64,000 nucleotides of DNA from Candidatus Nealsonbacteria bacterium (GTDB lineage: Bacteria > Patescibacteriota > Minisyncoccia > Minisyncoccales > JANBVM01). The translations under genes were made by a program, and so were the position numbers. This document shows positions 26,895 through 47,150 of this stretch, piece after piece. The number at the start of each line of letters is the position of its first letter. Position 1 is the first letter of the stretch. The stretch spans positions 623,159 to 687,158 of the forward strand of contig CP179887.1 in assembly GCA_047456295.1 (NCBI GenBank), given 5' to 3'. The notes under the pieces were generated by a model, which had not been told where the DNA came from, did not search any database, and saw only the letters and a program-made list of their open reading frames with translations.

Positions 26895-26922
26895 GGTTTG
26901 AACATCGTCCGGCTCCCGGAGT
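26895..26922 (+). repeat. cassette-junction core motif, degenerate copy (GGTTTGAACATCGTCCGGCTCCCGGAGT)
   Basis: Aligns with the consensus GGTTCTAACATCGTCCAGCCCCCGGAGC seen 12 more times downstream. Confidence 0.75.
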
Positions 26923-26954
26923 CAGCTTGTGCTCGGTTCGAGAGACCGAGCCGC
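26923..26954 (+). repeat. module B: T-arm-like hairpin (copy 1)
   Basis: CAGCTTGTGCTCGGTTCGAGAGACCGAGCCGC. Stem CTCGGT/ACCGAG with loop TCGAGAG. Confidence 0.7.
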
Positions 26955-26963
26955 TTATAGCGT

Positions 26964-27034
26964 TAGGGCGACCGAGAGGGGTTCGAATCCTACCGCCGGA
27001 GCAGGCTAGTGCTCGGTTCTTGCGACCGAGCCGC
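26964..27034 (+). repeat. 71-nt direct repeat: tRNA-Asn 3'-end fragment plus module B (left copy)
   Basis: Contains GGTTCGAATCCTACCGCCGGAGC (26980-27002), 22/23 identical to the 3' end of the tRNA at 20362-20384. ~90% identical to 28325-28395. Confidence 0.85.
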
Positions 27035-27041
27035 ATCAAAA

Positions 27042-27071
27042 ATCGCCAAGACGGCGATTTTTTGGTAGAAT
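27042..27071 (+). promoter_or_regulatory. hairpin + T-run + TGGTAGAAT promoter module
   Basis: ATCGCC-aagac-GGCGAT, T6, then extended -10-like TGGTAGAAT (TAGAAT 27066-27071). The ATG of the next gene is 45 nt downstream. Confidence 0.6.
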
Positions 27072-27116
27072 AGAAATAAAAAGTCATAATAAATATAACT
27101 TCAATTAAAAAACAAT

Positions 27117-28247
27117 ATGTCTAAAACAATAATTGCAATCATTGTTATAATCATTGTCGCGGGATTAGGTTATTGGATTTATCAATCAACTTTAGCACCC
27201 GAAGAACTAACTGAAAAAGAACAGGCGTGTATAAATTCTGGAGGAGAGGTATTAACATCATTGTGTTGTAAAGCAACTGGTGATTTCCCAAACCTGTGTC
27301 TCATTGGTCCCTGTGGTTGTTCCCCAGAAAACAGCCATGAAATAAAAGTTTGTGACTGCGGAGAAAAAAAATGTTTTGACGGTAATACCTGTGTACCAGA
27401 AGTATACAGCTTTAATGACTGTATTAAGGCTGGTTATCCAGTAATGGAAAGTTATCCACGCCAATGCAAAACGCCAGATGGGAGAATATTTACAGAAGGA
27501 GAAGAACATTGTATTGCGCCAACTGGCGAAAGTATGAGTTTGTTTGAAGCCATGCAAATCGCCATAACAAGTGAATGTGGCGACCAGCTAAGAAACTACT
27601 TAGAATTTGCTACGTGTAATGCAGATACAGGGACATGGTGGATAGATCTTGATATTGAAAAAGAAGGATGTAATCCTGCCTGCGTCGTAAATATTGCAAC
27701 AAAAGAAGCATCAATAAACTGGAGATGCACAGGTGTTTTAGAGATAAACAGTTTTGATGATTGTGTGGAAGCTGGTTATGCAATACTTCCTCCAATCCCA
27801 GGTGGCTATACTGAATGTAGAACACCTGATGGTAAGGTTTTCTATTTTGAGGAAATAGATGATGCATCCCTGTGTGCAAGAGATGGGGAAGTATTTTCAA
27901 GAGTATCTGATCAATACCTCGACAGTTGCTGCGAAGGATTAAAAGAATGGATACCTATACCGGATACGCGTTTTTCAATCGCAGATGTATGTTATGAAGT
28001 TGGGTTACCATCGGAATCTAACATAGGACTCTGTATAAAGTGTGGGGACGGGGTTTGTGAAAACCATTTGAACTATGATGAAAATCCATGTAATTGCCCA
28101 GAAGACTGTAAAGGGAAAAACAAGTCCATGTTTCAAAGCATAGAAGAATTTTGCCAGAGCAATGACTGGAAAATGTCTCTTTCCAAAGCATGTGAAGAAC
28201 AAGAACCTATTAAGGGTTCTCCAATATGTAAATTATGCGCTTTTTAA
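27117..28247 (+). CDS. membrane-anchored secreted cysteine-rich protein (paralog of 44651..45829)
   Basis: Signal anchor IIAIIVIIIVAGLGYWIY. 10-Cys module ACINSGG..LCCKATGDFPNLCLIGPCGCSPENSH..KVCDCG..KCF. Two FNDC(I/V)xAGY...C(K/R)TPDG repeats. Confidence 0.75.
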   Translation: MSKTIIAIIVIIIVAGLGYWIYQSTLAPEELTEKEQACINSGGEVLTSLCCKATGDFPNLCLIGPCGCSPENSHEIKVCDCGEKKCFDGNTCVPEVYSFNDCIKAGYPVMESYPRQCKTPDGRIFTEGEEHCIAPTGESMSLFEAMQIAITSECGDQLRNYLEFATCNADTGTWWIDLDIEKEGCNPACVVNIATKEASINWRCTGVLEINSFDDCVEAGYAILPPIPGGYTECRTPDGKVFYFEEIDDASLCARDGEVFSRVSDQYLDSCCEGLKEWIPIPDTRFSIADVCYEVGLPSESNIGLCIKCGDGVCENHLNYDENPCNCPEDCKGKNKSMFQSIEEFCQSNDWKMSLSKACEEQEPIKGSPICKLCAF

Positions 28248-28324
28248 AGAAATAGTGAGTAATGAGGTGTGGAGTACCTGCTCTAGAGATTGAACTATTT
28301 CCGAGACCGAACCGCCTACCCCTC

Positions 28325-28395
28325 TAGGGCGACCGAGAGGGGTTCGAATCCTAGCGCAGGAGCAGGCTAGTGCTCGGTTCGAGCAACCGAGCCGC
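28325..28395 (+). repeat. 71-nt direct repeat: tRNA 3'-end fragment plus module B (right copy)
   Basis: TAGGGCGACCGAGAGGGGTTCGAATCCTAGCGCAGGAGCAGGCTAGTGCTCGGTTCGAGCAACCGAGCCGC. Same order and orientation as 26964-27034. Confidence 0.85.
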
Positions 28396-28475
28396 CCAGC
28401 TTATTGCTGGGCGATTTTTATTACCTTGACTTTTCCTAAAAATAGGGGCAGATTTAAGGCAGATAAACACTATTT

Positions 28476-29700
28476 ATGAACCAAAAAGGCTTTATCCAAA
28501 TTCCGTTATTGGTAGCAATTATAGTTTCTATTGCAGCCGTTGCAGGGATCGGTTACGGAGTAGTTGAATATAATAAAACTTCTAACCTGGTTAAAGAGTC
28601 TCAGCAATTAGCCAAAGAAGAGAAATATAATGAGGCAATTGATAAATTAGAATCTGCTAAAAGTGGTTGGGCTACTAATGTTTTAGGAGTAAAAAAACAA
28701 GAAATTGTTAATGAGATAGAAAATAATAAAAAACTCCTTGAGGATAAATCAGAATATGCCCAAGGAATGGAAGAATTTAATAAAGGAAATTGGGAGAAAG
28801 CCAAAGAATTATTATCAAAAGTTTCCGAAATATCCCCTTATTATCAAGATGCGAAAAATAAGATAGAAGAGGCTCAAAAGAAAATAACAGAAAAACAAAT
28901 TGCCGAAGCAGTGGAGAAAACCACAGAAATGACTCAAGAGGAAATGACTAAACTTCAGCTCGAAAGACAAAAAGCTGAAAAACAATGGGCCGAAGCTGAA
29001 ATAAAACTAAAAGTAGAAGGACTGTTTAGAATAGGAAATACATTGCAAGATTATTATAACACAGTTAGAGAGGGAAGAGGGGTAGGTCAAAATTGGTGGT
29101 TGTATGGATATCAAGGAGAAGTAGACTTCGCATCATATCTAGCTAAACATGGTATAGGAGCAGTATATTGGCCAGAATACGAGTCAACGTATCATTCTCT
29201 TACTGGTAGTTCTTCTTGGTTGGATGCTAAAGAGAAATTAGATAATGTTTTGTTCCTCCCCTACACAGCAGCAGTTAGTTATAATGAGTCAGATTATGAA
29301 AAAATCAGAAAAATTCTCGATTTTTTTTAAATTTTACATCAAATATGAGCCTGATTTTAACGAAATATTAAGAGCGCCAGCGGAAACTCTTGGATTAAAG
29401 TCAGGAGACTGTGATGACTGGTCAATTCTCGCAAGCGCGGCATTCGCAGATGCTGGAATAGATTCAGCCATTATGTTTGTGAAAAGCATAGATGGGACGC
29501 AAGCTCATGCCATGGTATTAGTTCAATCTAAAGAGACCTTACCACTTTGGTCTTATTCAGATTTAACTCAGTATGGTCTTCCTAGTGGAAAATGGTGGAT
29601 TATAGAACCACAATTTACTTTTGGACAACAATCCCAGCATCCAGAATGGTTTACTCAATGGAAGTTTGAGGCAGCAGCATTAGTACCAGGTATAAAATAG
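28476..29700 (+). pseudogene. membrane-anchored coiled-coil / transglutaminase-like cysteine protease gene split by a +1 frameshift in a T8 tract
   Basis: ORF 28476..29330 stops inside T8 (29321-29328). The +1 frame continues ...FFKFYIKYEPDFNEILRAPAETLGLKSGDCDDWS...HAMVLV (Cys/His core of transglutaminase-like proteases). Removing one T gives one 407-aa ORF. Confidence 0.6.
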
Positions 29701-29749
29701 CCAAATTTTATAATTAACCTTTATCATTAACATACAAGGAGAAAATACA

Positions 29750-30400
29750 ATGACTGAAAAAACAATAATAGAAGAAATTAAAAAGATGATAACTGATGCT
29801 TGGGATGAGTTTAAAACCTATTATGATAATAAAGCCCCTGAGTATTCAAAGAAATGGAAAGGTCAAAGAGGTGAACTTCAACAAGATCATTGGATTTGTT
29901 GGGATGAACATGATTTATGTTTTCAAGTAGGGAGATTTTTTTATGATAAGTTAAACAAGGAAAAAGAGAAAAACGAAGATTTTTCAGATATAGAGATACA
30001 TTTTGAGAAGAAATTAGACACTATAAACTTTGGAGGTTTTAAGTTCGAAGATAAATTAGATAAGCTAATACTTAAGGATTTCGGAATGAAAAAAGGACCA
30101 AAAATTGATTTAATAATTGCTCATGAGAGCAGTGACGAACCTTTTTTATTATGTGCTGAGGTTAAATGTTTTCGTACAACAGTATCAGACGCAGAAATAG
30201 ATAAAGACATAGAAAAATTGAGAATTATCAAGGAAGAAGGGATAGCCGAAGAAGTTGTTTTTATGGTTTTTGATGATTATTATTTTACACAAAAAAGGAC
30301 TGGAGATAAAATTGAGTCTATTAAATCTAAAGCATCTAACAAAGGAGTTAAAGTATTGTATCATAATTCGAAAAAGAAATTATGCTTATCGGGTTGTTAG
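29750..30400 (+). CDS. hypothetical protein, possible PD-(D/E)xK nuclease fold
   Basis: 216 aa. KIDLIIAHESSDEPFLLCAEVKCF fits D-x16-E-x-K. SD-like AAGGAG upstream. No other recognisable motif. Confidence 0.3.
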   Translation: MTEKTIIEEIKKMITDAWDEFKTYYDNKAPEYSKKWKGQRGELQQDHWICWDEHDLCFQVGRFFYDKLNKEKEKNEDFSDIEIHFEKKLDTINFGGFKFEDKLDKLILKDFGMKKGPKIDLIIAHESSDEPFLLCAEVKCFRTTVSDAEIDKDIEKLRIIKEEGIAEEVVFMVFDDYYFTQKRTGDKIESIKSKASNKGVKVLYHNSKKKLCLSGC

Positions 30401-30556
30401 GCTTAATAGAGAGGATATCATTAATCTTGTAATGTCTGTTTTGGCTCGGAGGGTGGGACGTAATTCGCACTTGGTTTGAAAAAAGGTTTCCAGTAGTTGA
30501 GCCAATTAAATTATTGCTATAGTGGCTAATATAATACTTATGTTTTGAAATCATAA

Positions 30557-30621
30557 TTATCTTTTCCTTATCTTTTCCCTATCTTCTCCTTATCTTTTCA
30601 TTATCTTTCCTTAACTTTTCC
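30557..30621 (+). repeat. six tandem ~11-bp repeats (TTATCTTTTCC)
   Basis: ttatcttttcc / ttatcttttccc / tatcttctcc / ttatcttttca / ttatctttcc / ttaacttttcc, head to tail in a 380-nt ORF-free gap. Confidence 0.85.
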
Positions 30622-30738
30622 TTTTATAAATAATAATTTATCCGAAAAGCTAGTATATAAAGCCAAAACAGGCGAAATCTCATCGGTTTCGCTTTTTTGA
30701 AACTAAGACCGCCCATCGTTGTGCAATTTTTATTTCAG

Positions 30739-30770
30739 CCCGAGATTGTTTCTCGGGTTTTTGGTATAAT
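30739..30770 (+). promoter_or_regulatory. hairpin + T-run + TGGTATAAT promoter module, leaderless geometry
   Basis: CCCGAG-attgttt-CTCGGG, T5, TGGTATAAT (TATAAT 30765-30770). ATG at 30779 is 8 nt after the -10. Confidence 0.65.
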
Positions 30771-30778
30771 GGAGCAAT

Positions 30779-31378
30779 ATGGAGCAAATAATTTCAAAAG
30801 AAGAGCTTGATGAATTAATGAAGATCGAAGGAGAGGTAAGGGGGCTGACATTAAAAGGTTATACAAATTTTATTTTAAAAGAAGAAGGAAAAGAAGGATT
30901 AAAAAGGTTAGAAGACGCAATAACAGAACTCGGTTATCCAATAAAACACAGAGAAATAAAGGCAATGAGTTTTTATCCTGTAGGACTGGATAATCTTCTT
31001 TTACTGTCTATTAAGAAGCTTTTTAATTATGATAACAAAAAATTTCAGGAGATTGGAGAATTTCAGGCTAAATCCCCTTTAATTATTAGACTTTTTGTGA
31101 AATATTTTATTTCTCTTGAAAAAGCAATTGAAGCAGCTCCTAAGATGTGGAAAGTATATTATTCAAACGGAGACCTCAAAGTAACAGATTTTAATAAAGA
31201 AAAAAAGTATGCAATATTAAGGCTTGAAAATTTCCACAATACTCCAATCCATTGTCAAACTGAGAAAGCCTATTTTTCTAGTGTGGCTCGAATAATAGTT
31301 GGAAGTAAGGTAACCTGTGAAGAAACAAAGTGCACTTTTAGAGGTGATGACTATCACGAATTTTTATTAAGATGGTGA
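30779..31378 (+). CDS. V4R/DUF2378-like small-molecule-binding protein (paralog of 50700..51305)
   Basis: 199 aa. C-terminal CEETKCTFRGDDYHEFLLRW resembles the E-x-x-C-x-x-x-G-D-x-x-C-x-F end of V4R domains. Full-length similarity to 50700..51305. Confidence 0.4.
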   Translation: MEQIISKEELDELMKIEGEVRGLTLKGYTNFILKEEGKEGLKRLEDAITELGYPIKHREIKAMSFYPVGLDNLLLLSIKKLFNYDNKKFQEIGEFQAKSPLIIRLFVKYFISLEKAIEAAPKMWKVYYSNGDLKVTDFNKEKKYAILRLENFHNTPIHCQTEKAYFSSVARIIVGSKVTCEETKCTFRGDDYHEFLLRW

Positions 31379-31382
31379 ACTA

Positions 31383-31460
31383 AAACAGGTTCCCGCCCAT
31401 GGGGCGAGGCTCGCTTCTCTAGGTGGCACCTAAGAAGCGGCTAACATCGTTCCCCGGAGC
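31383..31460 (+). repeat. junction core motif split by a 48-nt palindromic insertion
   Basis: AAACAGGTTC (31383-31392) ... 48 nt ... CTAACATCGTTCCCCGGAGC (31441-31460). Confidence 0.8.
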
Positions 31461-31468
31461 TAAGTTAG

Positions 31469-31500
31469 CCCGAGATTGTTTCTCGGGTTTTTAGTTGACA
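31469..31500 (+). promoter_or_regulatory. hairpin + T-run + TTGACA promoter module
   Basis: CCCGAG-attgttt-CTCGGG, T5, AG, TTGACA (31495-31500), 17 nt, TATATT. The downstream gene has a leader with SD AAGGAG. Confidence 0.6.
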
Positions 31501-31575
31501 GACCTAAATAATAAATGTATATTATGGTCAGTAACTTGTAAACAAAATAATAAAAAAAAGGAGAAGTGAAATAAA

Positions 31576-31905
31576 ATGTCTGTATCTATAAATGATGATG
31601 GAAATTTATCGTTCAAGGTAAAAATTCTTCATAATGGGAACAAGAGAATACTTGTTTTACAATTTTTTGCTGGTGAGGGTTACGGAGAAAAAATAGAAAT
31701 TCTGGAAAAGATAAAAGACTTGTTGTCAGATGGCGTGAATAATTTGACAACCCTTGTAACAACCCTTGCACATGATTTTCCTGGAGATGAAACCATTCTC
31801 AATTTACTTAAGGACTTTTCTAAGAAGGATATCATTCCCGGTTATCATGGTATTAACTGGAGTGCGAGTAAGGGGCATACTCTTAATGTGCAACTTTCTA
31901 TATAA
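31576..31905 (+). CDS. hypothetical protein
   Basis: 109 aa, SD AAGGAGAAG 8 nt upstream. No recognisable motif. Confidence 0.5.
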   Translation: MSVSINDDGNLSFKVKILHNGNKRILVLQFFAGEGYGEKIEILEKIKDLLSDGVNNLTTLVTTLAHDFPGDETILNLLKDFSKKDIIPGYHGINWSASKGHTLNVQLSI

Positions 31906-32042
31906 AAAGATTTTTTATAAAAAAACTTTTAAATAAATTTTTTCTTTTTTTTCTTGTTTTTTTCAAATCCATAACTCGCTTGTGAGCTTGAAGAAGCCCG
32001 AAACTACCCAAAAAGGTGGTTTTTGGTTACTCTACCCCCACC

Positions 32043-32075
32043 AAACAGGTTCTAACCTCGTCCAGCCCCCGGAGC
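32043..32075 (+). repeat. junction core motif type 1
   Basis: AAACAGGTTCTAACCTCGTCCAGCCCCCGGAGC. Confidence 0.9.
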
Positions 32076-32220
32076 TATTGAGGCCTGAGCCTTTGGCTCG
32101 GGTTTTTGGTTTTAAAGCTATTCATGTTGATTTTTTCTATGATTTATTGTAATGATAATTTAGGTTGTGAAGATAACCAACCGTAATTTAAAAAGTAAAT
32201 AATGACAGATGTGATGTGAT

Positions 32221-33342: not shown

Positions 33343-33433
33343 TCTCAGCACCTGTAAATATAATAAGCTCACTCGCTCCATTTTTAAAAATCGTTGGATA
33401 GGGTGGGCCTTTTTTTATTCCAAAACCACCACC

Positions 33434-33465
33434 AAACAGGTTCTAACCTCGTTCAGTCCTCAGAG
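33434..33465 (+). repeat. junction core motif type 1 (3' part diverged)
   Basis: AAACAGGTTCTAACCTCGTTCAGTCCTCAGAG, preceded by TTTTTTTATTCCAAAACCACCACC. Confidence 0.85.
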
Positions 33466-33520
33466 AAAAATGAATACTTATAATGTGCTTTAAGCTCTTA
33501 AGATTTTCCCTAATTTTTTT

Positions 33521-33558
33521 CCAATTTATGGTTCTAAACGCGTCCAATAGAGGGAGCC
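33521..33558 (+). repeat. junction core motif type 2
   Basis: CCAATTTATGGTTCTAAACGCGTCCAATAGAGGGAGCC. Sister copies at 40282 and 46509. Confidence 0.8.
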
Positions 33559-33559
33559 A

Positions 33560-33598
33560 AATTGTATAAAATTGCATAGAATTGGATGTAATTGTATA
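33560..33598 (+). repeat. four AATTGNATR boxes with exact 10-bp phasing
   Basis: aattgtata (33560), aattgcata (33570), aattggatg (33580), aattgtata (33590). Confidence 0.85.
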
Positions 33599-33606
33599 GA
33601 AGAAAA

Positions 33607-33636
33607 ATCGCCTTAGAGGCGGTTTTTTGGTAGAAT
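33607..33636 (+). promoter_or_regulatory. hairpin + T-run + TGGTAGAAT promoter module, leaderless geometry
   Basis: ATCGCC-ttaga-GGCGGT, T6, TGGTAGAAT (TAGAAT 33631-33636). ATG at 33645 is 8 nt after the -10. Confidence 0.65.
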
Positions 33637-33644
33637 TGAGAAAT

Positions 33645-34304
33645 ATGGATAATCTTGCTAAAAAGAAAATCGAGGAGATTTTCTCATCAGGTCAAGTCGT
33701 CGCTGAAATGGATAAGACGACACACGATATCTTTCCTGTTTCCTTAGATCTGGATGAGGGAAAAAGTTTACAGAAATTTGTTCAGGATGAAGACCCTCAG
33801 ACAGTGATAGAAATTGGACTTGGCTATGGCTTTGCTGCGTTGAATGTTTTTGCGGCGAAAAATTTATCTAAAGAGAGTGATTTTCGATTCATAACTATTG
33901 ATCCAAACCAAGATAGCCGGTTTTCAAATGTCGGACTCCAACTGTTACGGGAAGTCGACGTTTTTGAGTATGTCGAATTTCATAACGATTCATCGGAGCT
34001 TGTTTTGCCTCGTCTTATCATAGCAAAAGAGAAAGCTGACTTTGCGGTAGTGGATGGCAATCACAGATTCGAGCACGTATTTGTTGACTTATTTTTTCTA
34101 GGGCGTATCTTAAAACCAGGAAGCTTAATCTTTCTAGATGACATGCAATTGCTGGGGATTAAGAAAGCTGTTTCGTTTTTTGTGAAAAATTTTGAATGGA
34201 AAATAGAAAAAGAGGCGCATAGCTCAAAGTATCATAAATGGGCAGTATTACGAACACGCCCCGAAGCTCTTGAACGAAGTTACGATTCTTTTACTGATTT
34301 CTAG
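33645..34304 (+). CDS. class I SAM-dependent methyltransferase (Methyltransf_24 / O-MT family-3-like)
   Basis: Motif I VIEIGLGYGFAAL. DFAVVDGNHRFEHVFVDL and IFLDD blocks. The listed TTG start at 33627 lies inside the promoter, so ATG 33645 is preferred. Confidence 0.75.
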   Translation: MDNLAKKKIEEIFSSGQVVAEMDKTTHDIFPVSLDLDEGKSLQKFVQDEDPQTVIEIGLGYGFAALNVFAAKNLSKESDFRFITIDPNQDSRFSNVGLQLLREVDVFEYVEFHNDSSELVLPRLIIAKEKADFAVVDGNHRFEHVFVDLFFLGRILKPGSLIFLDDMQLLGIKKAVSFFVKNFEWKIEKEAHSSKYHKWAVLRTRPEALERSYDSFTDF

Positions 34305-34336
34305 GGATTATGTGTTGGGTCAGGTAAATTCTTCCA

Positions 34337-34370
34337 AAACCAAGTTCTAATATTGTACCATCCCCGGAGC
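34337..34370 (+). repeat. junction core motif, degenerate
   Basis: AAACCAAGTTCTAATATTGTACCATCCCCGGAGC. Confidence 0.65.
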
Positions 34371-34371
34371 C

Positions 34372-34400: not shown

Positions 34401-34407
34401 TTAAGAA

Positions 34408-34437: not shown

Positions 34438-34443
34438 GTAAAT

Positions 34444-34650: not shown

Positions 34651-34658
34651 TAACCACC

Positions 34659-34690
34659 AAACAGGTTCTAACATCGTCTAGCTAGGGGAG
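34659..34690 (+). repeat. junction core motif type 1 (3' part diverged)
   Basis: AAACAGGTTCTAACATCGTCTAGCTAGGGGAG. The rest of the motif resumes after a 100-nt insertion at 34791. Confidence 0.8.
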
Positions 34691-34806
34691 ATAATTTCAA
34701 ATTCCTATAAAATTGTTTAATTTCTACCAGTTTCTCCTTCAACATAGCTATATAATCAGCGTTCTCTAAAATTATAATAAGCTTTGAACTGGGGAGCTCC
34801 GTTCAG

Positions 34807-35134: not shown

Positions 35135-35202
35135 AGAACAAAACCCCCTTAATGTAGTTAAAACTGCAAAGAGAGGGTTCTTTTTTTTATTCCAGAATCA
35201 CA

Positions 35203-35235
35203 AAACAGGTTCTAACCTCGTCCAGTCCCCGGAGC
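35203..35235 (+). repeat. junction core motif type 1
   Basis: AAACAGGTTCTAACCTCGTCCAGTCCCCGGAGC, preceded by TTTTTTTTATTCCAGAATCAC. Confidence 0.9.
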
Positions 35236-35599: not shown

Positions 35600-35679
35600 G
35601 AAGCAATGTCTCATTTCATTAAATACATAGAGGTAAGAATACATATCTTCACCTCTTTTTTTATTCCAAAATCTCCACC

Positions 35680-35712
35680 AAACAGGTTCTAACATCGTTC
35701 GTCCCCCGGAGC
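35680..35712 (+). repeat. junction core motif type 1
   Basis: AAACAGGTTCTAACATCGTTCGTCCCCCGGAGC, preceded by TTTTTTTATTCCAAAATCTCCACC. Confidence 0.9.
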
Positions 35713-35744
35713 AGGTTAGTGTTCGGTTCGAGCGACCGAGACGC
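35713..35744 (+). repeat. module B: T-arm-like hairpin
   Basis: AGGTTAGTGTTCGGTTCGAGCGACCGAGACGC. Confidence 0.75.
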
Positions 35745-40281: not shown

Positions 40282-40318
40282 CCAATCTAAGGTTCTAAAA
40301 TCGTCCGATAGACCGAGC
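40282..40318 (+). repeat. junction core motif type 2
   Basis: CCAATCTAAGGTTCTAAAATCGTCCGATAGACCGAGC. Confidence 0.8.
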
Positions 40319-40350
40319 AGACTTGTGCTCGGTTCGAGGGACCGAGACAC
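40319..40350 (+). repeat. module B: T-arm-like hairpin
   Basis: AGACTTGTGCTCGGTTCGAGGGACCGAGACAC. Confidence 0.75.
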
Positions 40351-40373
40351 CTTCGGTTCGAATCATAGCCCCA
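40351..40373 (+). repeat. tRNA 3'-end-like fragment
   Basis: CTTCGGTTCGAATCATAGCCCCA (T-loop GGTTCGAATC plus acceptor-like tail). No 5' half present. Confidence 0.6.
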
Positions 40374-40384
40374 CAAATGTCAAG

Positions 40385-40413
40385 ATCAAGCTTGAATGAG
40401 CTTGATTTTTTTT
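40385..40413 (+). terminator. hairpin + T-run
   Basis: ATCAAGCT-tgaatg-AGCTTGAT followed by T7. Confidence 0.7.
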
Positions 40414-40496
40414 GTAGTATTTTCTAATATCTACTTATAGTTAAAGAGGATGGTTCTTTAACAAAATAAAAATAAGAAGGAAGTGAAAAATAGAAA

Positions 40497-41474: not shown

Positions 41475-41535
41475 ATTTCTTATTAACAATATAGTGGCAA
41501 TCTTTAGCCACTTCTTTTTTTATTAAACCATCATT

Positions 41536-41568
41536 AAACAGGTCCTAACATCGTCCAGCCCCTGGAGC
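41536..41568 (+). repeat. junction core motif type 1
   Basis: AAACAGGTCCTAACATCGTCCAGCCCCTGGAGC. Confidence 0.9.
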
Positions 41569-41576
41569 TCGTAAAG

Positions 41577-41606
41577 ATCGCCTTAGAAGCGGTTTCCTGA
41601 TAGAAT
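41577..41606 (+). promoter_or_regulatory. hairpin + -10 module, leaderless geometry
   Basis: ATCGCC-ttagaa-GCGGT, TTCC, TGATAGAAT. ATG at 41615 is 8 nt after TAGAAT. Confidence 0.6.
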
Positions 41607-41614
41607 GAAAAAAT

Positions 41615-42043
41615 ATGAATAGAAAACAAATCAAAATCTGTAGCGCCTGTTTATTAGGAATAAGGTGTAGGTATGATGGAAAAAGTAAACCGGATGATAA
41701 AATTATTGAACTACTTAAAAAGGAAACCTTGATTCCTGTTTGCCCAGAACAGTTAGGTGGTCTATCAACACCAAGAGAACCAGCAGAACAAAAAGGGAAT
41801 AAGGTTATTACTAAATCGGGGAAAGATGTTACCGAAAGTTTTAAGAAGGGAGCAGAACAGGTTTTGGAATTAGCGGAATTATTTGATATCAAAGAGGCAA
41901 TTTTGAAACAGAAGAGTCCATCCTGTGGATGCGGACAAATTTATGATGGGAGTTTTTCCAGCAGGATTATTAAAGGAGATGGAGTAACCACCTCTCTATT
42001 AAAAACCAACGGTATTAAAGTTATAACCGAGGAAGATTTATAA
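41615..42043 (+). CDS. DUF523 / TudS-like (2-thiouracil desulfurase family) protein
   Basis: CSACLLGIRCRYDG N-terminal motif and internal SPSCG, characteristic of DUF523. Confidence 0.75.
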   Translation: MNRKQIKICSACLLGIRCRYDGKSKPDDKIIELLKKETLIPVCPEQLGGLSTPREPAEQKGNKVITKSGKDVTESFKKGAEQVLELAELFDIKEAILKQKSPSCGCGQIYDGSFSSRIIKGDGVTTSLLKTNGIKVITEEDL

Positions 42044-42056
42044 ACATTCAGTTATT

Positions 42057-42089
42057 AAACAGGTTCTAACATCGTCCAGCCCCCGGAGC
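42057..42089 (+). repeat. junction core motif type 1 (consensus copy)
   Basis: AAACAGGTTCTAACATCGTCCAGCCCCCGGAGC. Confidence 0.92.
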
Positions 42090-42098
42090 TCGTAAAAA

Positions 42099-42128
42099 AT
42101 CGCCTTAGGGGCGGTTCTTTGGTAGGAT
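42099..42128 (+). promoter_or_regulatory. hairpin + TGGTAGGAT promoter module
   Basis: ATCGCC-ttagg-GGCGGT, TCTT, TGGTAGGAT (42123-42128). The GTG start at 42156 is 27 nt downstream. Confidence 0.55.
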
Positions 42129-42155
42129 GAAACTATATAAGATTAATTTTTATCT

Positions 42156-42710
42156 GTGCAACTCTATTTTGTTACATCTAGCGAAAACAAAGTTAAAGAA
42201 GCAGAGGGCATTCTGGGTTTTGAGGTTGATAAGATATCTTTAGATATCAACGAGATTCAGACCCTTGAGGTAGAAGAAGTAGTTGAAGATAAGGCCAAGA
42301 GGGCTTTTGAGCAAGTTAAAAAACCGGTGATGGTTGAAGATACAGGGTTCTACATTGAGGCCTGGCAAGGCTTCCCGGGAGCGTTGGTTAAATGGATTTT
42401 GAAAACTCTTGATAACGAGGGGTTATGTTTGGCTTTTCAAGAAAAGAACCGCACTGTCACCGCTAAAACCTCTATTTGTCTTTACAACGGCAAAGAGGCG
42501 AAGGTATTTACGGGCGAAATTAAAGGCCAGATACCAGAGAAACCAAGGGGTGAAGGTGGTTTCGGATGGGACCCAATTTTCCAACCAGAAGGCCATAACA
42601 AAACTTTTGCAGAAATGAGCCAGGAAGAAAAAGATTTTATGTCTATGAGAAAGATTGCCCTGAATAAAATGAAACAGTTTTTAAAGGTAGACCCTGAGTT
42701 TTTACAATGA
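42156..42710 (+). CDS. rdgB: non-canonical purine NTP pyrophosphatase (RdgB/HAM1/ITPase)
   Basis: GTG start. FVTSSENKVKEAEGILG, EDTGFYIEAWQGFPG, GFGWDPIFQPEGHNKTFAEMSQEEKDFMSMRKIAL. Confidence 0.88.
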   Translation: MQLYFVTSSENKVKEAEGILGFEVDKISLDINEIQTLEVEEVVEDKAKRAFEQVKKPVMVEDTGFYIEAWQGFPGALVKWILKTLDNEGLCLAFQEKNRTVTAKTSICLYNGKEAKVFTGEIKGQIPEKPRGEGGFGWDPIFQPEGHNKTFAEMSQEEKDFMSMRKIALNKMKQFLKVDPEFLQ

Positions 42711-42720
42711 ATTAAGTGTT

Positions 42721-42752
42721 AAACAGGCTCTAACCTCGTCCACCCCCGGAGC
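42721..42752 (+). repeat. junction core motif type 1
   Basis: AAACAGGCTCTAACCTCGTCCACCCCCGGAGC. Confidence 0.9.
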
Positions 42753-42761
42753 TCGCATTTC

Positions 42762-42818
42762 CCACCTTATCGGTTAGGTGGTTTTTTGGTTGACCAATTA
42801 TTTTTTAGATGTTAATAT
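42762..42818 (+). promoter_or_regulatory. hairpin + T-run + TTGACC/TAATAT promoter of the csp gene
   Basis: CCACCT-tatcggtt-AGGTGG, T6, GG, TTGACC (42790-42795), 17 nt, TAATAT (42813-42818). Gives a ~100-nt 5' UTR. Confidence 0.6.
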
Positions 42819-42921
42819 TATTTACATAAGATAGTTGCCTAATGAAAATTTAGTCGAGTTTATTCAGGGAACTAAACTTTAGGATAAAACCTTAAAATAT
42901 TAATTAATTTATATCACAATC

Positions 42922-43119
42922 ATGGAAGGAACAATTAAAAACCTTACAGATAAAGGATTTGGATTTATTAACGTTGATGGTGAAGAGAAAGATTTATTCT
43001 TTCACAGCAACGAACTTAAGGGTGTAACCTACGATGAGTTAAAAGTAGGTGATAGAGTGTCTTTCGAAAAAGCTGATTCTCCAAAGGGTCCTAACGCAAC
43101 AAACGTAACCCGCCTTTAA
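42922..43119 (+). CDS. cspA: cold-shock protein (CspA family)
   Basis: 65 aa, KGFGFI (RNP1) and LFFH (RNP2). Confidence 0.92.
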   Translation: MEGTIKNLTDKGFGFINVDGEEKDLFFHSNELKGVTYDELKVGDRVSFEKADSPKGPNATNVTRL

Positions 43120-43242
43120 GAATTAATTCGGTAAATCAAATCAATGAGATCAAGCCCATTCTTGGGCTTTTTTTCATAATCAGTTAGGTGGTTTTTGATA
43201 AAATATAGTAAGGGTTTTAATTAATAACTAAACAATTAGTTT

Positions 43243-43389
43243 ATGATGCGTAAAAGATGGGTATTTGGATTTCTGGGATTTTTTGGAATAAAAGGAATAA
43301 TAGGAATTATAAATAGAAATTATTTAGAAGCTCTTTGGATTCTTTGGCTGGTATGGTTTCTTTGTTTCATACCCAAGAGAAAGTTATAA
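43243..43389 (+). CDS. unlisted 48-aa hydrophobic peptide
   Basis: MMRKRWVFGFLGFFGIKGIIGIINRNYLEALWILWLVWFLCFIPKRKL. Below the 60-aa ORF cutoff. Its stop TAA (43387-43389) overlaps the start of the junction motif. Confidence 0.4.
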   Translation: MMRKRWVFGFLGFFGIKGIIGIINRNYLEALWILWLVWFLCFIPKRKL

Positions 43390-43421
43390 AACAGGTTCTA
43401 ACCTCGTCCAGCCCCCGGAGC
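43389..43421 (+). repeat. junction core motif type 1 (consensus copy)
   Basis: AAACAGGTTCTAACCTCGTCCAGCCCCCGGAGC. Confidence 0.92.
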
Positions 43422-43454
43422 AGGCTAGTGCTCGGTTCTGGACGACCGAGACGT
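43422..43454 (+). repeat. module B: T-arm-like hairpin
   Basis: AGGCTAGTGCTCGGTTCTGGACGACCGAGACGT. Confidence 0.75.
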
Positions 43455-43521
43455 ATAGCTCTTTGCTGAGCAATTTTTATTTCCTCAATTACTAAAACCT
43501 GCTATAATCAAAGTAGTTTTT

Positions 43522-43734
43522 ATGATTGATATTAATTATCTCGGACCACTTTTATCAGAAAATCAATGGATTTTTTGGTTGATTATTCTTTGGACTTTAC
43601 CCTGGAAAGGAATAGCCCTTTGGAAATCTGCTCGCCTAAATGATAAATGGTGGTTTATCGCGCTTTTGATGATTAATACCCTTGCTGTATTGGAAATTCT
43701 ATATATTTTTATTATTAGTAAGAGAAAAAAATAA
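43522..43734 (+). CDS. DUF5652-like small membrane protein
   Basis: 70 aa. WKGIALWKSARLNDKWWFIALLMINTLAVLEILYIF pattern typical of this CPR-enriched family. Confidence 0.6.
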   Translation: MIDINYLGPLLSENQWIFWLIILWTLPWKGIALWKSARLNDKWWFIALLMINTLAVLEILYIFIISKRKK

Positions 43735-44609
43735 TGAAAGAATCTTTTTGGAAAAAAATAATAAAGAGTTTTAATCCTAAATTTTTTAAAGAAGTAGCCC
43801 CCCAATCATTGGTGCAAGGTTTTAAATATTTATTATTCTTATTTCTTCTTTTAACTTTATTTTTATCTTTGAAATATACGATCGGTTTTAACGGGACAGT
43901 AAAAGAATTTGCTAAAAACTTACCTATTTTCTGGGAAGAATTAAGAGATATTCCTGAAATCACTATAGAAAAAGGAAAAGTTACATTACCTAAACAATTA
44001 TTCATTCGAGAATGGGAAAAATTTGTTTTTGTGATTAATCCTCAGGGAGGAGTCGATTATTATTTAGCTTTAGTTGAGGATTATGAGGTAGGGGGATTGG
44101 TTATTCTTGAAGACAAGATAATTTTTAGGTCACAGAAGGGAAAAACTGAAATTTATAGTCTTCCAGAAGAAGCATCTTACTTGAATCTGAAGTTTGACGA
44201 AGGAGAAAAGGAGAAGTTGTTTAGTTTAACCCTGGATGAGAAGGTTTTTCAGCCGACTTTTAAAGAAATAAATCATTGGTTAAATATTGCTTCTTTCATA
44301 TTCTTTCCATTATGTTTTATTTTTATTTTCTTTGGTTTTTGGATTGGAAAATTAATTCAGATATTTGGTTTTAGCCTTCTTTCTTTAGTAGTTAATAAAG
44401 TAAAAAAAGTTGGTCTAAATTATCAAAATCTTTTGAATATAGGAATTTTTGCAATAACCCTACCCTTGATCTTGGAAACTTTGATGAAATTAAGCGGAGT
44501 TTCTGTTCCTTATTTTAATTCCATTTATTTTGTCCTTTACGCAGTTTTTCTAATAATTGGCATTTTGAAATGTAAAGTGGCAGCACCTCTTTCTGAAGAA
44601 TCTTTTTAG
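43734..44609 (+). CDS. polytopic membrane protein (DUF1189-like)
   Basis: 291 aa. One N-terminal TM, a ~130-aa loop, then 4 C-terminal TMs. The start overlaps the previous stop (ATAATG). Confidence 0.45.
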   Translation: MKESFWKKIIKSFNPKFFKEVAPQSLVQGFKYLLFLFLLLTLFLSLKYTIGFNGTVKEFAKNLPIFWEELRDIPEITIEKGKVTLPKQLFIREWEKFVFVINPQGGVDYYLALVEDYEVGGLVILEDKIIFRSQKGKTEIYSLPEEASYLNLKFDEGEKEKLFSLTLDEKVFQPTFKEINHWLNIASFIFFPLCFIFIFFGFWIGKLIQIFGFSLLSLVVNKVKKVGLNYQNLLNIGIFAITLPLILETLMKLSGVSVPYFNSIYFVLYAVFLIIGILKCKVAAPLSEESF

Positions 44610-44650
44610 TAAAAAATGAAAGGTCGAATATAATTTAACAATAAAATAAT

Positions 44651-45829
44651 ATGTCTAAAACAATAATTACAATCATTATTATAATAGTTATAGCGGGAGT
44701 AGGTTATTGGATTTATCAATCAACGATAACACCTGAGGGATTAACTGAAATGGAACAAGCCTGTATAAACTCTGGAGGAAAAATCTCCACATCATTATGT
44801 TGTAAATCAACTGGTGATTTCCCTAACATATGCCTCATTGGTCCTTGTGGTTGCTCTCCAGAAAATAGTCATCAGGTGAAAGTTTGCGACTGTGGACCTG
44901 ACAAATGCTTTAATGGAAGCGAGTGTGTGTCTTCAGACGAGATTTTAACTCTTCTTGAAAACCTTGAGCAAGAAACTGGGATAGATTTTTCAGAGATACA
45001 ACCAGTTGAATTTAAATGGGTTGTTAAAGTAGATCCAAAAGTAGAAGAAGTGGATATAGAAGGAAAAGGATTTGAAGCTAAACGTATATCGAATGGACAG
45101 TACGACAGTGTTGAATCTTTTCTCATAGATAGAGGTTTTGAAAAGAACCTTTACAATATAGCTGATGCCACTTTTGTTGGATTGGTGGGATATAAAAAAG
45201 ACCAGATTGTTTGTACGGTTTCTGGAGGGGCTACTGGGTACAAAGAAGCAGAGGGTCAGTGGATTCCACCAGAACCTGATAAAAAGGATGTAACGGTAAA
45301 ATGTGGTAAAGGAAGCGGGTTGACTGAACCCTTAGTTTCTACAGAAGAGGCAGTAAAGAAGCTTTTGGCTGAAAAATACAATAAGAAAATGGCAGAAGTA
45401 ACCATAAATATTAGCCAAGAGACAGAAAATCATGTTAAGGGTGGAGTTGTATTTCAGCCAGGTGGGCCTGAAAATTCAGGCATGTTTTTAGCAGCTAAAG
45501 AAAATGGTAGTTGGAAATTAGTACATGATGGCCAGGGAGCTATCCCTTGTTTAGATATTGAGCCTTATAATTTTCCAGTATATATGGTTATTGAATGTTT
45601 TGATGAAGAAACTGGAAAAGTAAAAGACAGAGCAGGAGAAGCATGTATCAATTCGGGAGGCGAAGCAACAACTTCTCTATGCTGTAAAGCAACCAGCGAT
45701 TATCCAAACCTTTGTCTTGTTGGTCCCTGCGGTTGTTCACCAGAAAATAGTCATCAAGTAAAAATTTGTGATTGTGGAGAGAACAAATGCTTTGATGGAG
45801 AACAGTGTATTGATGTTTCTTCAAAATAA
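44651..45829 (+). CDS. membrane-anchored cysteine-rich protein carrying the 10-Cys module at both ends (paralog of 27117..28247)
   Basis: N-terminal 95 aa ~85% identical to 27117..28247. The module recurs at the C-terminus (EACINSGGEATTSLCCKATSDYPNLCLVGPCGCSPENSHQVKICDCGENKCFDGEQC). Confidence 0.75.
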   Translation: MSKTIITIIIIIVIAGVGYWIYQSTITPEGLTEMEQACINSGGKISTSLCCKSTGDFPNICLIGPCGCSPENSHQVKVCDCGPDKCFNGSECVSSDEILTLLENLEQETGIDFSEIQPVEFKWVVKVDPKVEEVDIEGKGFEAKRISNGQYDSVESFLIDRGFEKNLYNIADATFVGLVGYKKDQIVCTVSGGATGYKEAEGQWIPPEPDKKDVTVKCGKGSGLTEPLVSTEEAVKKLLAEKYNKKMAEVTINISQETENHVKGGVVFQPGGPENSGMFLAAKENGSWKLVHDGQGAIPCLDIEPYNFPVYMVIECFDEETGKVKDRAGEACINSGGEATTSLCCKATSDYPNLCLVGPCGCSPENSHQVKICDCGENKCFDGEQCIDVSSK

Positions 45830-45855
45830 ATAACTGAAATATCTTTTATTTTGTT

Positions 45856-45887
45856 AAACAGGTTCTAACATCGTCCACGATGCGGAG
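45856..45887 (+). repeat. junction core motif type 1 (3' part diverged)
   Basis: AAACAGGTTCTAACATCGTCCACGATGCGGAG. Confidence 0.85.
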
Positions 45888-46048
45888 AAGTTGATTATTT
45901 AATTTGACAAAATAAGTGTTAGATATATACTTAAATAACTTTTCTTTTTACAAAGGAGAATGTCGTACTTTCTAAATCTTACGTTGAATCTTTTATCTGT
46001 GAGAACTTAGAAGTAGGTCGGTAAGTTTAATAAGTTTTTCTTAAAAAA

Positions 46049-46357
46049 ATGACAAATAAGGTTTATGTGGGAAATCTTTCTTTTGACACGACTGAAGACG
46101 CTTTAAAAGATTTGTTTTCCCAGGCCGGAACAGTAGATTCTGTTTCTATTATAATGGATAAATTCTCTGGCAGATCAAAAGGATTTGCATTCGTGGAGAT
46201 GTCTTCAGAAGAAGAAGCAAAAAAAGCGATAGAAACGCTTAATGGAAAAGAACTAGATGGAAGGAACATTGTAGTAGATGAAGCTAAGCCGATGGAAAAG
46301 AAACCTTTCAAAAAATTCTCTGGTGATCGTAGAGGATTTGATAAAAAGAGGTTTTAA
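46049..46357 (+). CDS. RRM-type RNA-binding protein
   Basis: RNP2 VYVGNL, RNP1 KGFAFVEM, basic C-terminal tail. ~110-nt 5' UTR downstream of TTGACA at 45904. Confidence 0.9.
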   Translation: MTNKVYVGNLSFDTTEDALKDLFSQAGTVDSVSIIMDKFSGRSKGFAFVEMSSEEEAKKAIETLNGKELDGRNIVVDEAKPMEKKPFKKFSGDRRGFDKKRF

Positions 46358-46508
46358 AAAAAGACTAGAATCAAATAATAAAGGAACCTTTCATAAAAGG
46401 TTCCTTTGTTTTATGTTCATCAACCATTTTTTAACATTGTCGTACAGGAAAAATCAGATAAATACTCATAATGGGCTTTAAATCTTTTAACCTTTCCTTA
46501 ATTTTCCT

Positions 46509-46545
46509 CCAATCAAGGGTTCTGAATGCGTCCAATAGGGAAGTC
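46509..46545 (+). repeat. junction core motif type 2
   Basis: CCAATCAAGGGTTCTGAATGCGTCCAATAGGGAAGTC. Confidence 0.8.
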
Positions 46546-46555
46546 ACGATAAAAA

Positions 46556-46585
46556 ATCGCCAATAAGACGATTCTTTGGTAAAGT
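46556..46585 (+). promoter_or_regulatory. hairpin + -10 module, leaderless geometry
   Basis: AATCG-ccaataaga-CGATT, CTT, TGGTAAAGT. ATG 46593 is 7 nt after the -10. Confidence 0.55.
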
Positions 46586-46592
46586 GAAAAGT

Positions 46593-47120
46593 ATGGAAGA
46601 TGAAAAACTTCATTATATAGTAGTTACTGGAATTATTATCAAAAAGGGAAAGTATTTAATTACAAGGAGAAGTTTAGAGGAAGCAGCATTTCCAGGTCTT
46701 TGGACTGTTCCAGGTGGAAAATTGAGAAAAAGTGATTATGTAGAGACTCCTAAAGACACTGGCGACCATTGGTATAATGTTCTGGAAAAACTCTTAGAAA
46801 GAGAGATACAAGAAGAGGTAGGATTAAAAATTAAAAACATCCATTATCTTTTAAGCTTGGCCTATATTCGTTCAGATAATATCCCAACCATGATTATTAG
46901 TCTTTATTGTGATTATGATTCAGGAAAGGTAATGCTTTCAGACGAACTGATAGAACATGCTTGGGTTACTGTAAATGATTTAAACAAATACAAATTTGTT
47001 CCTGGCTTAAGGGAAGAAATTGAGTTGGTTGATAAGGTCCTTAAGAAAGGCAAGCAGGATATGTGGAAGGGTAAATATGATACTGCTTCAAATGGAAGTT
47101 TGAGAGATGGTCATGGGTAA
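46593..47120 (+). CDS. Nudix hydrolase
   Basis: Nudix box GGKL...(insert)...EKLLEREIQEEVGL. The track start GTG 46584 lies in the -10 box, so ATG 46593 is preferred. Confidence 0.8.
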   Translation: MEDEKLHYIVVTGIIIKKGKYLITRRSLEEAAFPGLWTVPGGKLRKSDYVETPKDTGDHWYNVLEKLLEREIQEEVGLKIKNIHYLLSLAYIRSDNIPTMIISLYCDYDSGKVMLSDELIEHAWVTVNDLNKYKFVPGLREEIELVDKVLKKGKQDMWKGKYDTASNGSLRDGHG

Positions 47121-47150
47121 ACAGGTTCTGACATCGTTCTCCACCTGGAC
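47119..47150 (+). repeat. junction core motif type 1 (last copy, 3' part diverged)
   Basis: AAACAGGTTCTGACATCGTTCTCCACCTGGAC. Overlaps the Nudix stop codon (GGGTAAACAGG). Confidence 0.8.

Follow-up and report, generated by a model that had tools for sequence, protein, structure and literature searches.

A junction motif with a tRNA-like 3' end in single-gene arrays of Patescibacteria and its probable role as a recombination site of large serine recombinases

A 64-kb stretch of the Candidatus Nealsonbacteria contig CP179887.1 (hereafter the window; every absence reported for it covers these 64 kb) carries, downstream of a tRNA-Asn gene, a one-directional array of gene units that are closed by copies of one junction motif of about 33 nt. 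This motif is probably an attR/attP-type recombination site of integrative elements that are moved by large serine recombinases (LSRs) in Patescibacteria, and serial insertion of such elements probably built the array. This reading builds on four demonstrated features: how the site is put together, that it is linked to two tRNAs, that LSR genes are physically fused to it, and that units are reshuffled at the motif. The original prediction, made from the window itself, had proposed serial site-specific insertion at a tRNA-derived att site, and this is supported by the tRNA link, the breakpoints between genomes and the LSR fusion in relatives. It had also called the array integron-like. The layout is indeed so, but the enzyme is a large serine recombinase, neither a tyrosine integrase nor IntI.

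The junction motif in the window

The 33-base junction motif is genuine and non-random. In a pattern scan of the window, the 33-mer gave six matches with up to three mismatches against 0 expected, and its 16-nt core GGTTCTAANNTCGTCC gave 16 matches with up to two mismatches against 0.41 expected. All but one of these 16 core matches are on the + strand, between 26895 and 47139. A hidden Markov model (HMM) built only from copies in other genomes found 14 copies in the window at E<0.02, all on the + strand and within 26889-47147; the - strand and the 44 kb outside this stretch gave no copy. About three weak or split copies come in addition to these 14 (Table 1). About a dozen intergenic regions elsewhere on the + strand of the window lack the motif. 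Reading every junction confirmed each coordinate at which copies in one orientation had been predicted between 26.9 and 47.15 kb, together with the split copy, the degenerate copies at 26895 and 34337, and the three "sister" copies (at 33530, 40291 and 46518).

Two other statements of the original prediction needed revision. Copies were said to begin within a few nt of the preceding stop codon, but about half of them sit 60-140 nt past it, with a terminator in between. All array genes are on the + strand, as stated, but this is not special to the array, because + strand genes run from 16.2 to 53.7 kb. On the other hand, the heterogeneous codon usage noticed by eye was borne out: the GC content at third codon positions (GC3) of array open reading frames (ORFs) is 0.18-0.50, versus 0.32-0.35 for dnaG, rpoD and groEL. 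Terminator-like sites are enriched in the window (33 versus 12.7 +/- 3.9), and so are extended -10-like TTTGRTANRAT sites (11 versus 2.1), seven of which are in array junctions on the + strand. Thus, the units carry their own terminator and promoter signals, as had been supposed.

Other repeats are also restricted to the array stretch. These are six copies of a "B" module (AGGCTAGTGCTCGGTTCGAGCGACCGAG), two copies of an "E" module that reproduces 22 of 23 nt of the local tRNA-Asn 3' end, and two repeated types of terminator. Of three junctions said to carry better tRNA 3' fragments, those at 26966-27002 and 28327-28363 do so (22/23 identical to the tRNA-Asn end), and the one at 40351 is weaker. 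An intact tRNA-Asn gene is therefore accompanied by repeats of its 3' end, with near copies at 26980 and 28341, as in a tRNA island.

Distribution in other genomes

The motif was found by an exact pattern scan in at least 133 loci, of which 13 come from species-representative genomes, all or nearly all metagenome-assembled genomes (MAGs) of Patescibacteria, and at least 120 are metagenome loci. The array system is widespread in Patescibacteria and not peculiar to the window locus. The 133 loci hold 290 HMM matches, with none on the opposite strand within any locus; one further motif-like match on the opposite strand was seen in locus L063. At least three copies occur in 46 loci, and the maximum is 10 copies in 5.9 kb. 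The median spacing of copies is 781 nt, and the median distance to the stop codon of the preceding co-directional ORF is 50 nt, with about 21 of 256 copies overlapping the stop. Conservation is limited to about 33 nt and does not extend into the flanks. The core of the motif is unstructured (mean minimum free energy -2.9 kcal/mol), a T-run follows within 90 nt in 69% of copies, and Rfam 15 gave no match in the array at the gathering threshold or at E<=5. In L136 and L137, the 11 kb upstream of tRNA-Asn are free of the motif.

The cargo of these loci is diverse (200 Pfam families in 150 proteins; 120 families in 128 proteins). All-versus-all clustering of the locus ORFs revealed no shared hallmark gene, and a Pfam census of 278 locus proteins revealed no recurrent recombinase. 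Searches of the available literature turned up no description of the motif, of integrons in the candidate phyla radiation (CPR) or of CPR cassette arrays at tRNA-Asn/Gln, and likewise none of tRNA-Asn islands or tRNA-targeting LSRs in Patescibacteria.

Relation to tRNA-Asn and tRNA-Gln

The commonest tRNAs by far that ARAGORN detected in motif loci are tRNA-Gln(CTG), with 12, and tRNA-Asn(GTT), with 9; further tRNA-Asn genes in these loci are intron-split and hence missed by the program. Each of the 22 Asn/Gln tRNAs detected points the same way as the motif copies, which lie downstream of it in 21 cases. The gene order dnaG-rpoD-tRNA-Asn-array is kept in L006, L055, L063, L078 and L083, with different units in each.

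In sequence, the 3' third of the motif corresponds to the T-stem/acceptor 3' strand and discriminator of tRNA-Asn/Gln, and its 5' two-thirds are a conserved arm that is not derived from tRNA. Asn-type motifs end in ..TCC-NNN-CCCCGGAGC, and Gln-type motifs end in ..TCCAAGCCCCGCAGC, which equals the 3' end of tRNA-Gln in L036; rarer types also resemble U1-A72/G73 tRNAs. The core CC(C/G)CGGAG(C), present in every motif copy of the window, is shared with the tRNA-Asn 3' end, and the variant CCCCGCAG(C) is shared with tRNA-Gln. In L055, for example, the two sequences are GGTTCGAGTCCGGCCCCCGGAGCC (tRNA) and GGTTCTAACATCGTCCGGCCCCCGGAGCC (first motif). The likeness extends beyond the 3' ends. Sequence 3' of tRNA-Asn is homologous to sequence 3' of motif copies in alignments that start 5-8 nt before both 3' ends and extend over 80-210 nt, and in L006 a tRNA trailer of about 75 nt recurs almost exactly after two motif copies. 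Thus, either 3' end, that of the tRNA or that of the motif, can serve as the left border of the same downstream modules.

The two kinds of border differ in one regular respect. From GGTTC to A72-G73 there are 22 nt in 21/21 tRNAs versus 27 nt in 180 distinct motif copies, where fixed-length patterns were applied and the numbers count copies fitting that spacing rather than a free length distribution. Where the tRNA has GAR, the motif has TAAC-N-TCG. The non-tRNA arm (18-24 nt) is near-invariant in at least 180 distinct copies from lineages whose rpoD is only 54-87% identical. In LSR attachment sites, the motif bound by the zinc-ribbon domain is 5 bp closer to the crossover in attB than in attP, and this shift is how an LSR tells attB and attP apart (Rutherford et al., 2013; PMC3783163). 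The spacing of motif and tRNA shows just such a longer attP half-site and the 5-bp shift. By this rule, the motif can be read as a P-type half-site (CAGGTTCTAAC..GTCCA) joined to a shared core, and the tRNA T-arm (TAGGTTCGAR..TCC) reads as a B-type half-site. The predicted likeness to the T-loop-to-discriminator segment of tRNA thus applies to the 3' part of the motif; its 5' part is instead an attP-type half-site with GGTTC shifted by 5 bp. LSR attachment sites measure about 40-50 bp and are imperfectly dyad-symmetric about a central crossover dinucleotide. Here, sites adjacent to LSR genes show an inverted repeat, GTCCA-N16-TGGAC, centred on the CCGG/AGC boundary, and a crossover inside CCGGAGC is predicted from this symmetry. 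Farther out in P', where the LSR coding sequence imposes constraint, symmetry is not clear. Symmetry of the dif/Xer or lox kind was looked for in the 33-mer by eye and not seen.

Large serine recombinases at the site

The original prediction stated that the window has no integrase, and none was found there by Pfam (all ORFs of at least 90 aa), jackhmmer or PHROGs (unassigned ORFs, nothing relevant); only TnpB at 52453-53694 turned up. The jackhmmer search with IntI1 and XerD retrieved no tyrosine recombinase from the 133 loci either. An integrase next to the tRNA-proximal junction is lacking in the window and is present in three relatives (L138, L093 and L103), where an LSR gene stands at the tRNA-Asn 3' end. 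In L138, rpoD and tRNA-Asn are followed by a 535-aa LSR on the opposite strand with the Pfam domains Resolvase, Recombinase and Zn_ribbon_recom. Its stop codon is supplied by CTA of the T-stem read in reverse complement, and its last codons (LLRR) by the acceptor strand in antisense. Homologues with E<1e-190 are encoded in four other loci (L093, L103, L071 and L095), and homologous LSRs occur also in L139-L141. The gene ends inside the tRNA-Asn 3' end in L138, L093 and L103, and it adjoins or reads through a motif copy in L071, L095, L139 and L140.

The first motif downstream of the LSR closes an element of 8.4 kb in L093 and of 12.4 kb in L103, neither of which has an internal motif. The trailer after the closing motif of L093 agrees with the one native to tRNA-Asn in L087, where that tRNA is unoccupied. 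Comparison of tRNA and trailer in L087 with tRNA-LSR...motif and trailer in L093 thus gives an attB/attL/attR triad. Other arrangements, seen around three LSRs that read through the motif, are unit-motif-LSR (L139), a degenerate motif followed by an LSR element and six motif-closed units (L140), and two tandem LSR elements downstream of dnaG-rpoD (L141).

A database search gave about 7,000 LSR relatives at E<=1e-30. Of these, the closest 120 all carry the tail ..YSQSPxLLR(G/R), an antisense translation of CC(C/G)CGGAGCAA. Hand-written patterns sorted what comes after the tail: 37 of the 120 proteins end there, at least 42 run on into antisense tRNA T-arm (DSN..), and at least 21 into antisense motif (DDVRTC..).

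Exchange of units between genomes

Comparison of related loci shows presence or absence, replacement and reordering of units, bounded by the motif, as serial insertion had been expected to leave. Homology blocks end at motif positions +27 to +30 or begin at -8 to +1, and unit order varies among relatives. Identity between L060 and L039, 98.5% in one flank and 99.7% in the other, breaks off exactly at two motif copies; the interval holds a single 667-nt unit in L060, similar to the tRNA-proximal unit of L122, and a pair of unrelated units in L039. Another repeat-bounded polymorphism separates L136 and L137, two closed Nealsonbacteria genomes with 99% identical flanks that differ at tRNA-Asn. 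L136 has only an intronless tRNA-Asn at this site, and L137 has a gene for a helix-turn-helix (HTH) protein, an intron-bearing tRNA-Asn and a methyltransferase unit closed by the motif. A homologue of this unit is found at 33627-34371, 13 kb into the window array. A search for indels between related loci returned mostly differences in group I introns and homing endonucleases, not units.

Proposed mechanism and alternative explanations

In the favoured mechanism, an element would bring a P half-site, AAACAGGTTCTAAC-N-TCGTCC-NNN, joined to a short core that it shares with tRNA. The attB-type half-site would be formed by the T-arm and acceptor strand of the tRNA, in which GGTTC is nearer to the crossover by 5 bp. 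Each new element, entering at the tRNA or at an already existing motif copy, would restore a complete tRNA, push earlier insertions outward and leave a junction of P arm and tRNA 3' end behind. A one-directional array would result, in which every unit has its own terminator and promoter. The window array would extend from tRNA-Asn (20.4 kb) to 47.15 kb and be recombinase-less at present, and its units would be integrase-less passengers delivered, or mobilised in trans, by LSR elements encoded elsewhere. We infer that LSRs act on, deliver or capture such single-gene units, for which excision via an alternative downstream motif copy is a plausible route.

Several points weigh against this reading. 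Neither an LSR nor an LSR remnant was found in the window, the exact pattern scan of viral contigs gave no motif, and neither a circular or excised form nor a terminally repeated contig was seen. No P' half-site is recognisable at most internal junctions, so that small circles of units would be attR-type (P-core-B') and not attP-type. Known LSRs recombine attL with attR only together with a directionality factor, and mobilisation in trans therefore requires an extra step, which would itself be conjectural; a small HTH_17 protein of the LSR elements is a candidate for such a factor. Genes that look like housekeeping genes (proS, mltG/YceG, a guaA subunit, csp and ITPase) stand within the array, and such cargo is unusual for a purely accessory load. 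Replacement of units between identical flanks could also be achieved by homologous recombination. The fixed-length counting of the spacing, the hand-written tail patterns and the placing of the crossover by symmetry alone have to be reckoned on the same side.

The last of the biological objections is taken furthest if the motif copies are dead attR remnants of LSR elements that decayed where they stood, fossil scars that are reshuffled by homologous recombination at repeats or flanks, and if single-gene units never move as such. This main alternative is unlikely in our judgement. The absence of a recombinase from the window and from 129/133 loci, internal junctions that lack P', several degenerate or interrupted copies in the window, and the L060/L039 replacement with its identical flanks are all as scars would have it, and the junction repeats (33-130 nt) are long enough for RecA-dependent exchange. 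Neutral scars would decay, however, and the near-invariant non-tRNA arm persists in at least 180 copies across divergent lineages. Random deletion of 8-12-kb elements is not expected to yield uniform one-gene units with a median of 781 nt, and identical downstream modules lie behind both tRNA and motif borders in many genomes. A true integron, or a cluster of attC sites lacking an integron integrase (CALIN), in which the motif would be the R''-L'' half of attC hairpins recombined by an IntI-type tyrosine recombinase, is extremely improbable. The recombinase fused to the site is of the serine type, and the window and 133 loci hold no tyrosine recombinase. The core is unstructured, and only an R''-like box is present: GTTCTAAC resembles the inverse core RYYYAAC, but the inverted partner, (TGGAC)GTTAGAAC, which is found within 150 nt in about 12% of copies elsewhere, is missing from the other 88% or so and is nowhere in the window. 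Integron cassettes are promoterless and expressed from Pc, and their attC sites are imperfect inverted repeats (R''-L''...L'-R', with GTTRRRY as R') that form hairpins; the terminators and extended -10-like boxes at the junctions mean that the present units are not promoterless. What an integron would account for is a site after each ORF, one orientation and mostly one ORF per unit, and the Gln-type motif does resemble class 1 attC GTCTAACAATTCGTTCAAGCC (PMC2117344). In an alignment of the Gln-type motif GTTCTAACATCGTCCAAGCCCCGC with the R''-L'' side GTCTAACAATTCGTTCAAGCCGAC of attC, 17 of about 22 positions agree (PMC2117344); this likeness is probably a coincidence.

A role at the RNA level without DNA recombination, such as a protein-binding or processing signal associated with 3' untranslated regions or terminators and mimicking a tRNA 3' end, would fit the constant position of the motif on the sense strand downstream of ORFs and close to stop codons, the frequent T-runs that follow it, and the strong conservation of its sequence and not of structure. 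It is nevertheless very improbable as the whole explanation, because all motif copies in the window fall within a single stretch of 20 kb, because the motif is absent upstream of tRNA-Asn in L136/L137 and belongs to no Rfam family, because only 2/214 copies have an acceptor 5' partner for a tRNA-like helix, and because the tRNA-Asn/Gln link, the breakpoints at the motif and the LSR fusion are left unexplained. An RNA role in addition to the DNA role is possible. A tRNA-like cloverleaf or minihelix can be dismissed from the same acceptor count and the unstructured core, and ARAGORN finds no tRNA in the junctions. A dispersed repeat of the REP, BIME or MITE kind, which would be palindromic and occur genome-wide in both orientations, is rejected since the motif is confined within the window to 26.9-47.15 kb, unstructured, and on the opposite strand in 0/290 matches.

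The favoured LSR mechanism can be carried a step further, into a dedicated counterpart of the integron in Patescibacteria, with tRNA-Asn/Gln as capture sites and promoter-bearing P-arm/core/B' cassettes exchanged by LSRs in trans. We regard this as a rather doubtful extension, though one worth stating. Its site logic may be inverted, attB x attP releasing a cassette and attL x attR inserting it with a directionality factor. If it were true, minimal genomes would have a dedicated, phylum-wide platform for gene shuffling.

Comparison with known systems

The LSR elements Listeria A118/LI, phiC31, Bxb1 and SPbeta have the same set of domains (Resolvase, Recombinase and Zn_ribbon_recom), and there too the integrase gene ends at the att site. 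The hybrid sites are alike, attL being tRNA plus element and attR being P arm plus tRNA 3' end in the present case, and so is the P-type half-site that is 5 bp longer; imperfect dyad symmetry about a short core may be a further likeness. The present system differs in that it attacks tRNA-Asn/Gln at the T-arm and the acceptor 3' end, a niche typical of tyrosine integrases. It also differs in that the P arm ends hundreds of integrase-less single-gene units in tandem arrays, and in that the hosts are Patescibacteria. Integrons and CALINs share with it one-directional arrays of mostly single-ORF units, a site after each ORF, a diverse cargo whose functions are for the most part unknown and a recombinase that is often not nearby, and in both the most recent arrival presumably sits beside the primary site. 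Here, in contrast, there is no IntI and no attC hairpin, a tRNA gene takes the place of attI, units have their own promoters and terminators, and the recombinase is of the serine instead of the tyrosine type. Tycheposons of Prochlorococcus, likewise residents of a streamlined genome, insert time and again at the 3' ends of a small number of tRNA genes (bioRxiv 10.1101/2020.12.28.424599). The outward push of older insertions, partial tRNA copies and integrase-less cargo remnants are common to both; tycheposons are multi-gene elements with tyrosine recombinases, whereas an LSR, regular units of about 0.8 kb and a junction with a long conserved non-tRNA arm distinguish the system described here.

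Gene gain and loss in the tiny, streamlined genomes of CPR/Patescibacteria are poorly understood, and the findings point to a hotspot that comes down to two tRNA genes, a 33-nt site and one recombinase family. It appears to be widespread in the phylum, with at least 133 loci and about 7,000 LSR relatives. In Patescibacteria MAGs, the motif can serve directly as a marker of the bounds of the flexible gene pool, and the predicted natural attB/attP pairs of a new clade of large serine integrases may be useful in genome engineering. An attP half-site that mimics a tRNA T-arm with a 5-bp shift is an independent natural illustration of the model of attP/attB discrimination. The system also raises the question of a serine recombinase driving integron-like accretion of cassettes.

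The tRNA-Asn gene and other features of the window

The coordinates of the array and its start are given in Table 1. The window has a GC content of 35%, encodes DUF5652 and a split GuaA, and its rpoD is 83% identical to that of the best named relatives. The gene order uvrA, groEL, dnaG, rpoD and tRNA-Asn(GUU) shows a chromosomal context.

Table 1. Attachment site, junctions and first unit of the array (positions in the window)
Feature	Position	Strand	Basis
tRNA-Asn(GUU), putative primary attachment site, attB-type (B arm + core)	20051..20384	+	sequence and Rfam
Native tRNA-Asn trailer (B' flank CCAGCAGCGAATCGTTCGAGAGACCGG) and terminator; prototype of the B module	20385..20450	+	
proS and livKHMGF, probable first (tRNA-proximal) unit	20570..26807	+	Pfam, GC3
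Degenerate motif copy AAATAGGTTTGAACATCGTCCGGCTCCCGGAGT, then B module	26889..26950	+	nhmmer E=8e-6
"E" repeat (tRNA-Asn 3'-end copy, tRNA-type GGTTC spacing, foreign 5' arm), then B module	26960..27030	+	junction reading
Second "E" repeat, then B module	28321..28391	+	junction reading
Motif copy interrupted after GGTTC by an insert of 48 nt that forms hairpins	31381..31461 (31383/31441)	+	nhmmer, two partial matches
Perfect motif copy	32042..32076	+	E=2.8e-11
Motif copy	33432..33465	+	E=4.8e-8
"Sister" copy GGTTCTAAACGCGTCCAATAGAGGGAGC: same P arm, different tRNA-like 3' core	33521..33557	+	core scan
Degenerate copy after methyltransferase unit	34337..34371	+	E=0.011
Motif copy, then ~110-nt segment, then second core-like GGGGAGC	34657..34690	+	HMM
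Motif copy	35201..35235	+	E=1.9e-11
Motif copy, then B module	35678..35740	+	HMM
"Sister" copy, then B module	40282..40346	+	E=9e-5
Motif copy	41534..41569	+	HMM
Perfect motif copy	42055..42090	+	E=6.8e-13
Motif copy, shorter by 1 nt	42719..42749	+	HMM
Perfect motif copy, then B module	43386..43449	+	HMM
Motif copy with variant core CACGATGCGGAG	45854..45887	+	HMM
"Sister" copy	46509..46545	+	core scan
Last, degenerate copy; overlaps the Nudix stop codon	47119..47147	+	E=0.0075

The segment 20362-20384, which had been taken for tRNA-Asn, does belong to that tRNA, but it is the 3' end of a gene split by a group I intron. Exon 1 (20051-20084), the intron (20085-20346) and exon 2 (20347-20384) were delimited manually, the Rfam match to RF00028 itself covering 19993-20338 with 86.9 bits. 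ARAGORN misses the gene because the intron interrupts the anticodon loop. The spliced tRNA-Asn, which ends in GGTTCGAGTCCTACCGCCGGAG, is near-identical to the intronless tRNA-Asn of L044/L085 and L136. The array most likely starts at tRNA-Asn itself (20.4 kb), and proS and the liv operon would therefore be its first unit. The liv operon (22425-26807) has a GC content of 0.41-0.45 and a GC3 of 0.36-0.50, above core genes, which is consistent with horizontal acquisition within a tRNA-proximal unit. The genes directly after tRNA-Asn in relatives differ from the proS and liv genes of the window.

An HTH_23 protein of 221 aa is encoded 33 nt upstream of tRNA-Asn (region 19352-20384). Its gene and the intron co-vary, in that one of the two closed Nealsonbacteria genomes has both and the other has neither (L136/L137, 11227-13373), and the protein may be a free-standing intron-associated, possibly homing, factor. 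It was considered as a recombinase and rejected, since it has no match to a catalytic domain, is missing in several array-bearing relatives and co-varies with the intron. Intron-related loci besides the window are L019, L028 and L093, and outside the two closed genomes the intron can bear an HNH-like ORF itself.

Downstream of the tRNA, a trailer of the same type as in the window is found in L083. An element ..TCGAG-N-GACCGAGAC.. stands 3' of both tRNA-Asn and tRNA-Gln in several lineages (L036, L037 and L083), and in the window at 20385-20415, 26923, 27003, 28364, 35713, 40319 and 43422. It could be a B' half-site or a signal for trailer processing. The "E" repeat consists of GCGTTAGGGCGACCGAGAGG and GGTTCGAATCCTACCGCCGGAGC (26960-27002 and 28321-28363 in the window) and occurs three times in L083 (1770-1815, 2480-2527 and 2560-2600). 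It may be the scar of a different family of integrating elements at tRNA-Asn.

The insert at 31393-31440 forms two hairpins and breaks the motif copy exactly after GGTTC. The segment of about 110 nt at 34690-34800 recurs in the unrelated loci L007 (1360-1524) and L013 (7310-7447), with up to 81% in translated comparison, and could be a small gene or an RNA. In L140 (11680-21674), the LSR element and the six-unit array are directly beside an OLD-family nuclease and a complete type I restriction-modification system. The TnpB of the window (52453-53694) is an IS605 OrfB with a Cas12f-like TNB domain; it has no TnpA nearby and no link to the motif. At 57619-61919, direct repeats that are 91-100% identical are spaced by 1533 nt and 783 nt, with a GC content of 47% versus 35%, and this stretch has no ORF longer than 154 aa on either strand and no Rfam match. 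The sign of the GC skew changes and gene orientation flips from + to - at about 54000-58000, which could be a replication terminus near the array.

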